This document shows, piece by piece, positions 4,224-39,468 of a stretch of 64,000 nucleotides of DNA (positions within the stretch are counted from its first letter, which is position 1; each line of letters begins with the position of its first letter). The notes below the pieces were generated by a model that was not told the DNA's origin, did not search any database, and saw nothing but the letters and a program-made list of their open reading frames with translations. Source of the stretch: Chrysomallon squamiferum (lineage: Eukaryota; Animalia; Mollusca); contig CM022679.1 of NCBI GenBank assembly GCA_012295275.1, forward strand, positions 24,552,001 through 24,616,000, read 5' to 3'. Made by a program: the position numbers and the translations under genes.

Positions 4224-4606
4224 AACGGTACATTGAAAACAATCCTATACGAGAATAATTTTACAAGTAAGATTAACATATCATTTCCTCCTTCTTTCAT
4301 GGTTCTTCTTTTTATTATCGTTCAAATTATTACTTGTTTCCAATTCTAATTTCTTTGATCCTCAGAAAGTCTTAGGCGAAAATGTGCATTCCCCATTTTA
4401 AACAAATCATCTCGTTATAAAACTCGCACTTATTTATACATGTATCAATAATCCACTGCCCTCTCTTATGCACTCAGTGCACGCCACAAACAGTGACGTT
4501 ATCTCATTTCATTGTCACTGAATACAGTAACGGCCCTTAGTGTTTCGAAGACGTTGTTGTTCACGTACGTTATTGCTGTTGTCGTTATAGGGAATTCCAC
4601 TAGTAC

Positions 4607-4652
<46 letters not shown>

Positions 4653-4898
4653 GTTGTTGTTGTTGTTGTATTTGTTGTTGTTGTTATTCTTGCTGCTGCT
4701 GTTGATTTCCCTGTTCTTAGTATTATAATAATACATTTGTTTTCTTTATTTGTGTATTCAGTCAGTGAGTCAGTCAGTGAAATCATTTATTATTTACAGA
4801 TTCGTTTCCAGGGATATGGAAATGGGGAGGAAAAAAAAAGTATCTTTAAAAAATAAATGAAATAAAATAGAATCAAAGAAAATATGGCAATTGTGTGC

Positions 4899-4937
4899 AG
4901 TCACTTTCACGTGATTTGCATGGCCCTTAAAAGAGCC
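4899..4937 (-). promoter_or_regulatory. Histone-mRNA-type 3' processing signal: stem-loop GGCTCT-TTTA-AGGGCC (4922-4937), then ATGCA, then purine-rich HDE-like GAAAGTGACT (4908-4899)
   Basis: 6-bp stem and 4-nt UUUA loop fit the histone consensus GGYYYU-UUUH-ARRRCC; 38 nt after the stop. Same element at 7522, 10115, 12714, 15307, 17914, 20513, 23108, 25712, 28316, 30916, 33520, 36120, 38707. Confidence 0.75.
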
Positions 4938-4975
4938 GCCGTTTCAAAGGCATAATTATGTGCTTTCGGCTCATT

Positions 4976-5278
4976 TCACTGCATGTATTCGTCATCGGAT
5001 TCCGATTCGGGCGAAACGATTGACAATCGCATCCTCAGTTCGGCCACCGTTTCTGCTTTCCAGCAGGCGTATTCGTAGTAGGAATTACGCACACCCTCAA
5101 CAGTGGCCATTTTCAGGCGCAAGTTGTATCGGAACGATTTGTGGTTGTCCACTCTGGCTTTGTCGTATCGGAGTTGCAGGTCTTCCAGCTTGCTGTTCAG
5201 CATGACAATCTGCTCGCAGGCTCGTCTGAAGCGATTCTCTGTTTCGTAGAGTGCAGCGTACAGACTGAATTTCTCCAT
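4976..5278 (-). CDS. Orphan intronless 100-aa predicted helical/coiled-coil protein with acidic C-tail (MEKFSLYAAL...ESESDDEYMQ), copy 1
   Basis: ATG at 5278 (the track's 110-aa start is a TTG); GC-richer than flanks; TATA and cap site upstream; frame kept in diverged copy 14. Confidence 0.8.
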   Translation of the reverse strand: MEKFSLYAALYETENRFRRACEQIVMLNSKLEDLQLRYDKARVDNHKSFRYNLRLKMATVEGVRNSYYEYACWKAETVAELRMRLSIVSPESESDDEYMQ

Positions 5279-5311
5279 AGTTTTCCAATGACTTTCTGTA
5301 AATTCCAATCA

Positions 5312-5350
5312 AAACTGAATGTGGAAGAAACAGAAGCGCCTACCTTATAT
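5312..5350 (-). promoter_or_regulatory. Pol II core promoter of the orphan ORF: TATAAG (5349-5344) and CATTCAGTT cap/Inr (predicted TSS ~5320); present in every unit
   Basis: TATA lies 29 nt upstream of the A in CATTC; predicted 5' UTR ~42 nt; unchanged in diverged copy 14. Confidence 0.65.
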
Positions 5351-5913
5351 TCCTAGTAATTATGACACGCACTAATACTCAATGCCATGTCAATTACATA
5401 CACATCGTAAACAAATCAGGCAGTACTCAAATGTCAGTCAATTAGCTGATCTAATAACAACGAGGAATGACGTAATCAATAGAAACAACAGTTAGCAAAC
5501 CCGAACATAACGGTAATTTATTCAAGTACTGCTGCTGTTACTTTTATGTTTAACCTCAACTGCTGATACTAACATCACAATTACTACCACTGCTAGATAC
5601 ACTTAGGAAAATATGGAGACAGTGAGAGCGGAGAACTGTGGTGCACAAAGAGGACGAAATAGACGAAAAATTACTTGTAAATCCGACTGCATTTCTGTAT
5701 TTCTTAACGATGTAATAATAATAATGATAACAGTTAATAATAAGAAGCTCTAGAGCAAGCATAAATATTACGCATCACTGAAAATAATTTAGTAAACATC
5801 ATTATGAAATAAATGAATAAATCGATAAATCGATAAATTAATAAACAAACAAACAAATAAATAAATATTCCGGATCGCCGGACATAAATCAATAAAAATC
5901 GCACCTATTAATC

Positions 5914-36173: not shown

Positions 36174-36476
36174 TCACTGCATGTATTCGTCATCGGATTC
36201 CGATTCGGGCGAAACGATTGACAATCGCATCCTCAGTTCGGCCACCGTTTCTGCTTTCCAGCAGGCGTATTCGTAGTAGGAATTACGCACACCCTCAACA
36301 GTGGCCATTTTCAGGCGCAAGTTGTATCGGAACGATTTGTGGTTGTCCACTCTGGCTTTGTCGTATCGGAGTTGCAGGTCTTCCAGCTTGCTGTTCAGCA
36401 TGACAATCTGCTCGCAGGCTCGTCTGAAGCGATTCTCTGTTTCGTAGAGTGCAGCGTACAGACTGAATTTCTCCAT
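36174..36476 (-). CDS. Orphan 100-aa protein, copy 13
   Basis: Same translation as copy 1. Confidence 0.8.
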   Translation of the reverse strand: MEKFSLYAALYETENRFRRACEQIVMLNSKLEDLQLRYDKARVDNHKSFRYNLRLKMATVEGVRNSYYEYACWKAETVAELRMRLSIVSPESESDDEYMQ

Positions 36477-37111
36477 AGTTTTCCAATGACTTTCTGTAAA
36501 TTCCAATCAAAACTGAATGTGGAAGAAACAGAAGCGCCTACCTTATATTCCTAGTAATTATGACACGCACTAATACTCAATGCCATGTCAATTACATACA
36601 CATCGTAAACAAATCAGGCAGTACTCAAATGTCAGTCAATTAGCTGATCTAATAACAACGAGGAATGACGTAATCAATAGAAACAACAGTTAGCAAACCC
36701 GAACATAACGGTAATTTATTCAAGTACTGCTGCTGTTACTTTTATGTTTAACCTCAACTGCTGATACTAACATCACAATTACTACCACTGCTAGATACAC
36801 TTAGGAAAATATGGAGACAGTGAGAGCGGAGAACTGTGGTGCACAAAGAGGACGAAATAGACGAAAAATTACTTGTAAATCCGACTGCATTTCTGTATTT
36901 CTTAACGATGTAATAATAATAATGATAACAGTTAATAATAAGAAGCTCTAGAGCAAGCATAAATATTACGCATCACTGAAAATAATTTAGTAAACATCAT
37001 TATGAAATAAATGAATAAATCGATAAATCGATAAATTAATAAACAAACAAACAAATAAATAAATATTCCGGATCGCCGGACATAAATCAATAAAAATCGC
37101 ACCTATTAATC

Positions 37112-37409
37112 GCCGGGAGTTGTGGCGAGCTCCTGTAATCCAGCTACTTGGAAGCATAGGTCTGTGGACAGCTTGAGTTCGGGGGTTCTGCTCTCTGGTG
37201 CTCTGTGTTGATTGGATGTCCGCACTAAGCTCGGCATCGATATGGTTTAACTCGCGGAGGCGAGAGAAACCAGGTTGTCTAAGGAGGGACGTAATGGCCC
37301 AGGGCGGAAACGCAGCAGGCAAAAGTCTCCGTGTCGAGTAGTAGTGGGATCGCGTCCGAGAATAGGCACTGGTTAGCAGCCTAGACAATACAGCTGAACC
37401 TTACCTTTT
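37112..37409 (+). ncRNA. 7SL: 7SL (SRP) RNA, copy 13
   Basis: As copy 1. Confidence 0.95.
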
Positions 37410-37810
37410 ATCAGTTATTATTGTTATTTTCCTTTATGCTCTGAGATTTCCATCTAATCCTTTCGAAATAAAGCGACAAGTGAAACAGTTATTTTCATTG
37501 CAAGCTAATGTTTTCTCTGTCGGAATGCTAGCTGCAAAAGAAAATTAGAATTATGGTGTTTTATTTCGTCATGTTCGCTAATGCGTTAGCTCCGCAGTAT
37601 TATCCCTATTTATTATTTCTTTTTATTTCCCTTCCGGATGTGCATATCTCATATGATTAATATTTGTCCTCGATTGTTTGCAATAGCAGTCTCAATAAAT
37701 TAGAACATTTATCCGAAACTAATATAATTAACAGAAAATATTTTGAAAGATTCGATAATAATAATAACAATAATTATCAAAAAAAAAAAAAAAAAAATAA
37801 GGAAAATGAA

Positions 37811-37930
37811 ATGTCTACAGCACTCGGTGTTCCCAGGCGGTCACCCATCCAAGTACTAACCGAGCCCTACGTTGCTTAACTTCGGTGATCGGACGAGAAC
37901 CGGTGTTTTCAACGTGGTATGGCCGTAGAC
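37811..37930 (-). rRNA. 5S: 5S rRNA, copy 13
   Basis: As copy 1. Confidence 0.97.
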
Positions 37931-38760
37931 AACAGTACATCGAAAATAATCGTATACGTGAATAATTTTACGGCGTCAGGTTAACATGATTTCTTTCTTC
38001 TTTCGTCGTTCGTATTATTAGTTGTTTCCAATTCTAATTTCTTCGCTACTGAGAAAGCAAAAATAAGCACGTCGATATAATCACGTGGTTGCACTCCGAA
38101 TCATCGGTATATTTCACCGCGCTCGGGAGTCTTCGGCGAAAATGTGCATTCTCTATATTAAACGGATCAACAATCGGAAACTGTATCAAGACCAGAACAT
38201 ACCTCCACCTCAACTCCGTGTTATTCTTCTCGCGATAAAATCGCACTTATTTATACATGTATCAATAATCCACTGCCCTCTCTTATGCACTGAGTGCACG
38301 CCACAAACAGAGACGTTATCTCATTTCATTGTCACTGAATACAGCAACGTGCCCTTAGTGTTTCGAAGACGTTGTTGTTCACGTACGTTCCTGCTGTTGT
38401 CGTTAAAGGAAATTCCACTGTTACCATAATTATTGTTGTTGTTGTTGTTGTTGTTGTTGTTATTCTTGCTGCTGCTGCTGCTGTCTTTGATTTCAGTATT
38501 ATTAGTATTATAATAATACATTTGTTTTCTTTATTTGTGTATTCAGTCAGTGAGTCTGTCAGTGAAATCATTTATTATTCACAGATTCATTTCCATGGAT
38601 ATGGTAATGGGGATGAACAAATATGTATCTTTAAAAAATAAATGAAATAAATTAGAATCAAAGATAATATGGCAATTGTGTGCAGTCACTTTCGCGTGAT
38701 TTGCATGGCCCTTAAAAGAGCCGCCGTTTCAAAGGCATAATTATGTGCTTTCGGCTCATT

Positions 38761-39063
38761 TTACTGCATGTATTCGTCATCGGATTCCGATTCGGGCGAA
38801 AGGATCGCCAATCGCGTCGTTAGTTCGGCCACCGTTTCTGCTTTCCAGCAGGCGTATTCGTAGTAGGAATTACGAACACCCTCCACGGTGGCCATTTTCA
38901 GGCGCAAGTTGTATCGGAACGATTTGTGGTTGTTCGCACTGGCTTTGTCATATCGGAGTTGGATGTCTTCCAGCTTGCTGTTCAGCATGACAATCTGCTT
39001 GCAGGCTCGTCTGAAGCGATTCTCCGTTTCGTACAGTTCAGCGTACAGACTGAATTTCTCCAT
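38761..39063 (-). CDS. Orphan 100-aa protein, diverged terminal copy 14 (10 aa differences)
   Basis: Intact frame, several synonymous changes, stop TGA->TAA, stem-loop at 38707-38722 unchanged. Confidence 0.8.
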   Translation of the reverse strand: MEKFSLYAELYETENRFRRACKQIVMLNSKLEDIQLRYDKASANNHKSFRYNLRLKMATVEGVRNSYYEYACWKAETVAELTTRLAILSPESESDDEYMQ

Positions 39064-39468
39064 AGTTTTCTTATGACTTTCTGTAAATTCAAATCAAAAC
39101 TGAATGTGGAAGAAACAGAAGCGTCTACCTTATATTCCTAGTAATTATGACACGCACTAATACTCAATGCCATGTCAGTTACATACACATCGTACACAAA
39201 TCAGGCAGTACTCAAATGCCAGTCAATCATTTGTTCTAATAACAACGAGGAATGACTTAATCAATAGAAACAACAGTTAGCAAACCCGAACATAACGGTA
39301 ATTTATTCAAGTACTGCTGTTGTTACTTTTTATGTTTAATCTTCACTGCTGATACTAAAATCACAATTACTACTACTACTACTACTATATATATATATAC
39401 TTAGGAAAATATGGAAGACAGCGAGAGCGGACAAATGTGATGCGTTGGTTTTTAATTTATAACATTTG

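Follow-up and report, generated by a model that had tools for sequence, protein, structure and literature searches.

In the stretch of the Chrysomallon squamiferum genome analysed here (64,000 nt, hereafter the window), a 2.6-kb unit, in which genes for 5S rRNA and 7SL RNA are combined with one for a small non-histone protein, is repeated 13 times, and the protein gene (hereafter the ORF family, or ORF) is followed, both here and in most of the related loci, by the stem-loop signal so far described for histone genes alone. The reading we favour, with a probability of about 70%, is that the ORF mRNA would be cut by SLBP and the U7 snRNP and would bear no poly(A) tail, and that the array amplifies a conserved non-histone gene, the 5S and 7SL genes being interchangeable, captured partners.

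The tandem array and its edges

Rfam searches, the ORF copies and the alignment of the units place the tandem array at about 4194..39440, with a period of ~2.6 kb (2587-2608 nt) and 14 ORF, 13 7SL and 13 5S copies. A preliminary description of this DNA had reported a three-gene unit of 2.6 kb in 13 or more copies, with the ORF (reverse strand) and 7SL (forward strand) divergent and 7SL and 5S (reverse strand) convergent, and both copy number and orientation are borne out; the span that it gave, 4224..39432, encloses a real array whose ends are better placed as above. At the Rfam gathering score the window holds 13 Metazoa_SRP genes on the forward strand (5914-37409, 242-256 bits) and 13 5S genes on the reverse strand (6614-37930, 119 bits), the latter all identical. 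The 14 ORF copies, all on the reverse strand, run from 4976-5278 to 38761-39063; 12 are full length and two are frameshifted, one (31091..31273) by a 1-nt insertion and the other (33633..33878) by a 2-nt insertion, each of them possibly a consensus error. Besides the copy taken here as representative (7576..7878), they end at 5278, 10471, 13072, 15663, 18271, 20869, 23464, 26068, 28672, 31273, 33878, 36476 and 39063.

Identity of the units to unit 2, used as the reference, ranges between 97.9 and 99.6%, the last unit being the furthest from it with 46 mismatches. The flanks of the array are unique, its core is homogeneous, its edge units are diverged and its SNP blocks are clustered. At the left edge lies a decayed unit (3173..4407, reverse strand), in which a 5S pseudogene is split into two pieces (3173-3317 and from 4194) 876 nt apart and followed by a spacer with two deletions. 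At the right edge, the terminal ORF copy (38761..39063, reverse strand) has diverged to 90% amino-acid identity, with a promoter intact to ~39440, and an inverted, truncated ORF fragment (40892..41036, forward strand; 93% identity over 145 nt) lies outside the array. We propose that the array was homogenised by unequal crossing-over and that its edges were spared; a homogeneous core between diverged edges indeed supports the concerted evolution invoked in the preliminary description.

That description had also named an assembly artefact as a possible flaw. Contigs from two DNA runs, belonging to two studies, cover 27/30 and 29/30 bins of window positions 7000-10200, even if none of the contig pieces listed spans a whole unit, and the array is not an artefact of a single assembly. 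The homopolymer and short insertions, the two frameshifts included, do suggest consensus errors, and the copy number may be wrong, contig coverage predicting about 60-70 copies rather than 13. It is nonetheless highly improbable that the array is an artefact or that the ORF is neutral DNA hitchhiking among 5S genes, given the diverged edges, the clustered SNP blocks, the contigs from two independent DNA studies and a dN/dS of 0.05-0.14 (nine between-locus pairs with a defined value), which indicates strong purifying selection on the ORF; as to the existence of the array and its coding, this explanation is already refuted.

The small protein and its family

The representative ORF (7576..7878, reverse strand) is an intronless frame of 100 amino acids whose product is predicted to be a two-helix hairpin with an acidic tail, and the frame is continuous, without intron, in the window and in the related loci. 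It was thought at first to be an orphan coding sequence, a view that does not hold, as the ORF belongs to a large family (1045 clusters at E up to 0.001) whose named members come from bivalves, gastropods, two annelids and one nemertean, the annelid and nemertean ones being covered here as protein sequences; none has a function based on the domain in question. Among 7996 candidates scored, those relatives that exceed the usual length consist of tandem copies joined end to end or are long predictions in which no named domain is present, and in one case a fusion to a SWIM finger is predicted. Two loci were set aside during this search: a bacterial one (L033), discarded as a false family match, and a phage tail region (L034) without similarity to the ORF.

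The structural model (pLDDT 90.6) has two helices of 42 residues each (2-43 and 47-88). Over 85 proteins, the median net charge is +6 at the hairpin tip, where Arg, Lys and Tyr are conserved, and -7 in the tail. The protein is not a histone: Pfam scans of the ORF, of 48 aligned members and of 63 further members returned no histone family and assigned no family, and PDB sequence matches included no histone and no related family. Foldseek found no PDB match at E up to 0.001, and the best VIA-align result (Z 12.2, rmsd 4.5 over 100 residues) was tied with many unrelated chains. Two long antiparallel helices are likewise predicted to be shared, at Z ~11-12, with ESCRT-III alpha1-alpha2, prefoldin, the SerRS arm and the LSD1 tower; the identities to such hairpins, however, are 4-19%, with many tied unrelated rows and no PDB or Pfam sequence relation. 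The model thus suggests a generic helical hairpin, and the missing family matches do not establish a new fold. ESCRT-III proteins also combine a basic core with an acidic tail, as the ORF protein does. The best Atlas score, 0.83 to a mostly molluscan cluster, is a lead only. As the least certain step of the favoured reading, the likeliest role of the protein could be that of a small factor that binds chromatin or nucleic acid and is required in large amounts alongside new histones, in which case the conserved Arg/Lys/Tyr tip would grip nucleic acid and the acidic tail would bind basic partners or damp the tip.

A very large, fast-diversifying and intronless family, with one predicted SWIM finger fusion, might also be expected of a mobile element or endogenous virus of the Polinton/Maverick kind that mimics a histone 3' end in order to engage SLBP, the arrays being amplified remnants or a domesticated gene. 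In one related locus (L032), in fact, a decayed ORF copy with stem-loop and AAAG motif has as its neighbours disrupted stretches of BIR (E 7.5e-11) and PHD (E 0.0015), a gene set known from Polintons; these remnants adjoin that one decayed copy, and the window has no such setting. Against this origin, three queries of viral contigs gave no true relative, their one hit being L034, a Foldseek search of viral folds brought up nothing at E up to 0.001, 13 whole tandem units have no second notable gene (for L018-L020, among the matches listed), and the ORF is under strong purifying selection. We consider it unlikely.

The 3' end and promoter of the protein gene

Past the stop codon of the representative ORF, at a distance of 38 nt, lies a histone-type stem-loop (7522..7537, reverse strand) with a 6-bp stem and a 4-nt loop, followed 14 nt past the stem by an AAAG core (7504..7507, reverse strand) that is predicted to be a histone downstream element and is a putative U7 pairing site. 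The exact hairpin pattern recurs in 12/14 copies, and the remaining 2/14 have extra A's in the loop homopolymer. The preliminary description mentions no histone-type 3' end. A 6-4-6 stem-loop is found 27-58 nt after the stop codon in 28/31 related loci, counted over those with a readable ORF (four near-identical pairs included; L032, with its broken ORF, excluded), against a background of 0.004 per 100 nt, and AAAG lies at +12 to +17 from the stem in 26/28 of the stem-loop loci. In L024 (two genes) and L025 the first 100 nt contain no stem-loop, and AAAG is missing from L030/L031.

Across 26 aligned rows, loop U3 is invariant, as are the G-C at pair 2 and the U-A at pair 6, and nine cells are altered on both sides of the stem, a degree of compensatory change reached by 0/500 shuffles and far above slid controls, bearing in mind that the search pattern was composed after the sequences were seen and that related rows inflate shuffle tests. 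The Rfam Histone3 model (RF00032), which is independent of our own pattern, gives matches of 21.5-33.6 bits, at E up to 1, in 27/33 loci and of 29.3 bits in each of the units of L035/L036, all family matches being below the gathering threshold of 34 bits; the window hairpin, whose stem includes a U-G pair and whose 5' flank is atypical, scores 15.1 bits (E 1.5). In 11/145 distant proteins the stem-loop is read through and translated (shuffled mean 0.045). According to the accessible part of a recent report (bioRxiv 10.64898/2026.10.14.759114), a G-C at pair 2, U3 in the loop and a spacing of 25-60 nt are diagnostic of histone mRNAs, and with its 6-bp stem and 4-nt loop the family displays all of these features.

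An ordinary polyadenylated gene, with a hairpin that was left over from a histone cluster or that another protein reads as a stability element, would agree with Rfam scores below gathering and weak in the window, with a mismatch at pair 4 (14/26 rows) that is conserved in one clade, and with members devoid of the hairpin. Hairpin, stop spacing and AAAG offset, however, are jointly conserved across loci that are nearly saturated at synonymous sites, and AATAAA within 300 nt is not conserved (11/29 loci, the window among them), which makes this explanation improbable in our estimation, slightly more so than a mobile origin.

Upstream, a TATA-like box (7944..7949, reverse strand) lies 71 nt before the ATG, and its counterparts are at -61 to -90 in 24/25 upstream regions; a family-conserved RTGTCA element (7963..7968, reverse strand) is present in 23/25 (shuffled mean 2.4, maximum 8). 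Where the preliminary description spoke of a Pol II protein gene, the protein gene stands, and Pol II is deduced from the TATA box and the 3' signals, not from reads. The ORF family shares with metazoan replication-dependent histone genes (RF00032) the lack of introns, short UTRs, a TATA box, tandem arrays, the stem-loop spacing, G-C pair 2, loop U3 and a downstream purine element, as well as, going by the accessible parts of the sources, occasional 5S and U1 linkage. Unlike histone genes, it codes for a protein that matches no histone-fold or linker-histone family and is predicted to form a two-helix hairpin ending in an acidic tail, its RNA hairpins fall short of the Rfam gathering threshold, and no histone gene lies within the arrays of the loci examined. 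A gene for LSM11, the Sm protein specific to U7, also lies in the window, at 47549-50050.

Under the SLBP/U7 reading, Pol II would start downstream of the TATA box, SLBP would bind the hairpin, U7 would pair with the AAAG element and CPSF73 would cleave about 5 nt past the stem. The mRNA would then follow histone timing, either as an S-phase burst or through maternal storage and use at cleavage stages. Such timing would explain both the many copies and the missing signal in two RNA runs, where ORF contig depth (0-4, with 2-9 in spacers) is not above background, and where contigs cannot show transcript ends.

5S, 7SL and other gene partners

The representative 7SL (SRP) RNA gene (8514..8811, forward strand) ends in a T run, and array 7SL covers positions 1-299 of RF00017, that is, its full length. 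The 7SL RNA contig reaches depths of 27,271 and 1,001 in the two RNA runs, versus 2-9 in spacers, and in one run does not differ from the array over 211 nt. Absence of this 7SL variant from RNA reads, an objection foreseen in the preliminary description, is thus contradicted by abundant matching RNA in both runs. The representative 5S gene (9214..9332, reverse strand; Rfam) is followed by T runs, and array 5S shows two compensatory pair changes compared with the 5S genes of related loci; like 5S in other linked arrays, it is intact, homogenised and co-repeated with another multigene family. The two RNA runs hardly cover it, and the lone 5S contig in them belongs to another type. Contig depth for a different 5S type is ~20x that of the array unit; we rejected it as the main functional 5S, as 2/3 of its listed changes would break pairs unless their partners changed too, and it may represent a family that is SINE-like or decayed. 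With ARAGORN, neither the window nor any of 33 loci yielded a tRNA.

The partners of the ORF differ among loci. Tandem units in 13/32 related loci hold the ORF only, with no 5S, 7SL, U1 or tRNA match; a U1+ORF+5S unit is found elsewhere; in other relatives the ORF lies among 5S genes; and 7SL is absent from all 33 metagenome loci, so that the linkage sought in relatives does not extend to them. Two DNA runs contain a second unit type, with variants of the ORF, the 7SL-side joint and the 5S flank, from which we infer that the trio is older than the present array.

Such age, the company of 5S also in L030/L031 and L035-L037, and the 7SL RNA that matches the array would be in keeping with the preliminary proposal that co-amplification was selected for a 1:1:1 dosage of 5S, 7SL and protein, suited to the stockpiling of ribosome and SRP parts in oocytes. 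We regard this as quite improbable, however: the partners vary (none, U1+5S, 5S, 7SL+5S), another 5S type is ~20 times deeper, and 5S linkages have, per the accessible text of PMC6204057, been repeatedly gained and lost. The variation points to interchangeable partners and counts against both a fixed dosage and the hitchhiking that had been suggested as the alternative, which is further at odds with purifying selection and with ORF arrays devoid of 5S. In the SLBP/U7 reading, 5S and 7SL would have been captured into the same repeat as interchangeable partners.

In the accessible portions of the literature, 5S genes are linked to histone genes (Artemia, Mytilus), to U2 (Crassostrea), to U1 and U2 (Acropora) and to histone, U1, U2 and tRNA genes (Hydractinia). 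As in these, our array repeats 5S jointly with a second RNA gene and a presumed Pol II gene under concerted evolution; it differs from them in having 7SL as the RNA partner and, as the Pol II gene, one that encodes no histone. Like the preliminary description, which knew of no such unit, our literature search, whose reach did not include a 2013 survey of metazoan 5S linkage, brought up neither a 5S+7SL unit nor such a non-histone partner, and no stem-loop gene outside the histones. Taken alone, the 5S+7SL linkage adds one modest novelty to the 5S linkages already described.

The larger implication lies in the 3' end. As far as the accessible text of PMC4604434 goes, histone mRNAs represent the sole non-polyadenylated cellular mRNAs known, and no non-histone target of SLBP was found in HeLa cells. 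We lean, by a little, towards the view that a lophotrochozoan-wide, tandem, non-histone family uses the SLBP/U7 3'-end pathway; it would be the first non-histone class of poly(A)-less mRNA, encoding a "sixth" replication-coupled chromatin protein largely missed by poly(A)-selected transcriptomes and annotations, with repeats that capture 5S, U1 or 7SL as histone clusters do. If confirmed, the ORF would give the histone mRNA pathway its first non-histone client in the literature searched and, if true, would break the rule, as given in the accessible part of the same paper, that only replication-dependent histone mRNAs carry a terminal stem-loop in place of poly(A). It would also offer a natural experiment on the requirements of SLBP, U7 and the histone locus body, the clade-wide stem mismatch included, and would point to an uncharacterised protein made by molluscs and annelids on the histone schedule.

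Organization and expression of the array

The tandem ORF/7SL/5S repeat proposed in the preliminary description was confirmed, as Rfam placed 13 full-length 7SL genes (+ strand) and 13 5S genes (- strand) within 5914-37930, and the intronless ORF of 100 aa was found 14 times on the - strand of the window (12 copies intact, two frameshifted). Units measure 2587-2608 nt, are 97.9-99.6% identical to unit 2, and differ from one another chiefly by homopolymer and other short insertions, plus a few SNPs common to adjacent units. Both edges are diverged: the left one contains a 5S pseudogene split by an AT-rich insertion of 876 nt (3318-4193) and a spacer with two deletions, and the right one a unit carrying 46 mismatches, beyond which lies an inverted ORF fragment (40892-41036). 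Unequal crossing-over leaves homogeneous core units and diverged edges, and this, not misassembly, is the pattern seen here; contigs from two DNA runs of two studies indeed covered 27 and 29 of the 30 bins of positions 7000-10200. Elsewhere in the window are a coiled-coil gene of several exons, whose N-terminus is rich in Lys and Gly and whose Pfam matches are all weak (41246-45972, -; DUF4515, E 0.009), and two locally duplicated paralogs, each having its two CARD domains in one exon (51089-51823 and 57288-58007, -; E 4.5e-21 and 5.6e-20).

Four of 19 listed runs, all as assembled contigs, were compared with positions 7000-10200. Both DNA runs show that another kind of ORF+7SL+5S unit exists elsewhere in the species; its ORF is diverged, its ORF-7SL spacer is shorter (8075 joined to 8506), and its contig depths (which do not equal copy number) were 119-141 and 2100-2420, versus 230-400 and 3200-3700 for the array type. 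Another 5S type, seen at 9260-9271 and 9333 and having different upstream flanks, reached 6415 and about 75,400, approximately 20 times the array contig depth, and may be the main 5S array or a decayed or SINE-like family. A contig of run X3 (depth 52.8), probably from another individual, contains both left-edge deletions, with 2 differences over 15 letters and over 16; if this is the depth of a single copy, the unit would have very roughly 60-70 copies and would be collapsed in the assembly.

In two RNA runs, contig depth at 7SL was 27,271 and 1,001, versus 2-9 in the spacers, and the X11 RNA contig had 0 differences from the array 7SL over 211 nt; 7SL with the array sequence is therefore expressed. 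Neither the ORF (contig depth 0-4) nor the array 5S was found above background in these runs, so that, of the three array genes, 7SL was the one seen in RNA there. Compared to four 5S genes of related loci, the array 5S has two compensatory pair changes, as would be expected of a working gene.

A conserved family with histone-type signals

The ORF is not the orphan that had been supposed: it has 48 close relatives, and a profile search returned 1045 clusters (50% identity) at E up to 0.001, and 640 at 1e-10. Named members, from Mya, Dreissena, Mizuhopecten, Pinctada, Patella, Littorina, Nucella, Lamellibrachia, Capitella, and Tubulanus, are annotated as hypothetical or uncharacterised, with the sole exception of one low-complexity-style label. 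Judging by these taxa, the host is probably a lophotrochozoan, such as a mollusc; the window protein grouped with no named species in our tree. The dN/dS ratio was 0.05-0.14 in nine between-locus pairs (saturation left four pairs undefined) and 0.31 between a core and a terminal copy. These values, and ORF arrays lacking 5S, speak against an ORF hitchhiking on the 5S array; that the ORF is neutral, or the array an artefact, is scarcely credible.

The protein matches no family in Pfam or PDB. Its AlphaFold model (pLDDT 90.6) has antiparallel helices (2-43 and 47-88) and a disordered tail, and fold searches with it returned nothing beyond generic hairpins. In 85 members, the hairpin tip retains R37, Y38, K47, R50, Y51, and R54 (median net charge +6), and the acidic tail has a median of -7. 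From this charge pattern and the regulation, we tentatively guess at a chromatin or nucleic-acid binder produced alongside histones. Derivation of the family from a mobile element is unlikely: a decayed member with a hairpin does adjoin broken BIR and PHD pieces in locus L032 (1021-3899), possibly a Polinton-like remnant, but three queries revealed no true relative in viral contigs, and no viral fold matched at E up to 0.001.

In the window, a 6-4-6 hairpin lies 38 nt 3' of the stop codon, with AAAG 14 nt beyond it; a low-depth variant has the hairpin U-G pair changed to U-A (10118). Of 33 metagenome loci, we set aside L033, which is bacterial, and L032, whose ORF is broken although it has a hairpin. 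In 28 of the remaining 31, a hairpin was found 27-58 nt past the stop (background 0.004 per 100 nt), using a pattern composed after the data had been seen and counting four near-identical locus pairs. AAAG follows at +12 to +17 in 26 of these 28. In L009 the counted copy is truncated at the contig end, and another copy has the hairpin. The proximal hairpin was absent only from L024 (1431-1763, -; 3755-4072, +) and L025 (175-630) among the 31; in L024, AATAAA lies 244 nt downstream of the + gene and a hairpin about 167 nt downstream of the - gene. By analogy with replacement histones, these members are possible polyadenylated variants. That the hairpin is a relic and the ORF gene is itself polyadenylated appears quite improbable. 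In 26 aligned hairpins, pair 2, pair 6 and U3 of the loop are invariant, and three pairs are altered on both sides. Pair 4 is mismatched in 14 of 26 rows (C-A or A-C, conserved in the L011-L029 clade), which might tune SLBP binding. Rfam Histone3 matched 27 of 33 loci, every score being below the gathering threshold (window hairpin 15.1 bits, E 1.5), and the translated hairpin occurs as read-through in 11 of 145 distant predicted proteins (shuffled mean 0.045). Upstream, a TATA-like box is retained in 24 of 25 regions and an RTGTCA element in 23 of 25 (shuffled mean 2.4), its TGTCA being, we presume, a TALE-homeodomain site. The 3' and upstream signals agree with those given for histone genes in bioRxiv 10.64898/2026.10.14.759114 and PMC5011920.

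Changing partners and proposed processing

Whole tandem units of 1.37-2.30 kb were recovered in 13 of 32 loci, and none of the 13 matched 5S, 7SL, U1, or tRNA. One contig of 15,127 nt (L035-L037), filed in a bacterial MAG and evidently animal DNA, consists of U1(+), a hairpin-bearing ORF(+), and 5S(-) repeated every 2.14 kb, with seven ORF matches; in L030/L031 a distant member lies amid 5S genes. No 7SL was found in related loci, 700 nt of upstream sequence being present in only 11 of 31. The constant element is thus the ORF with its histone-type signals, with 5S, U1, and 7SL gained and lost, and the fixed 1:1:1 dosage once suggested does not hold for ORF arrays found alone, with U1 and 5S, or among 5S; selection for such dosage is very improbable. 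Histone clusters likewise have interchangeable small-RNA gene partners (PMC13525598, PMC5011920, PMC6204057, and PMC8167085).

Array anatomy, selection on the ORF, conserved cis-elements, and 7SL expression are demonstrated. On these signals we propose, with a probability of about 70%, that Pol II transcribes the ORF, that SLBP would bind the mRNA hairpin, and that U7 would guide cleavage, leaving an mRNA without poly(A) and with timing resembling that of histone mRNA. A gene for LSM11, the U7 snRNP-specific Sm protein, lies 8 kb from the array (47549-50050, +; four probable exons, three matching human LSM11 at E 0.003, 1.4e-06, and 0.02); the U7 pathway therefore exists in this host, and the proximity may be chance.

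Linkage of 5S to other families is already known; 7SL is the new partner, and, in agreement with the preliminary description, we found no 5S+7SL repeat unit in our searches of open-access main texts. The searches also turned up no non-histone stem-loop gene. The ORF gene would work like replication-dependent histone genes, yet it stands outside that family. If true, use of the histone 3'-end pathway by a non-histone gene would be new in kind.
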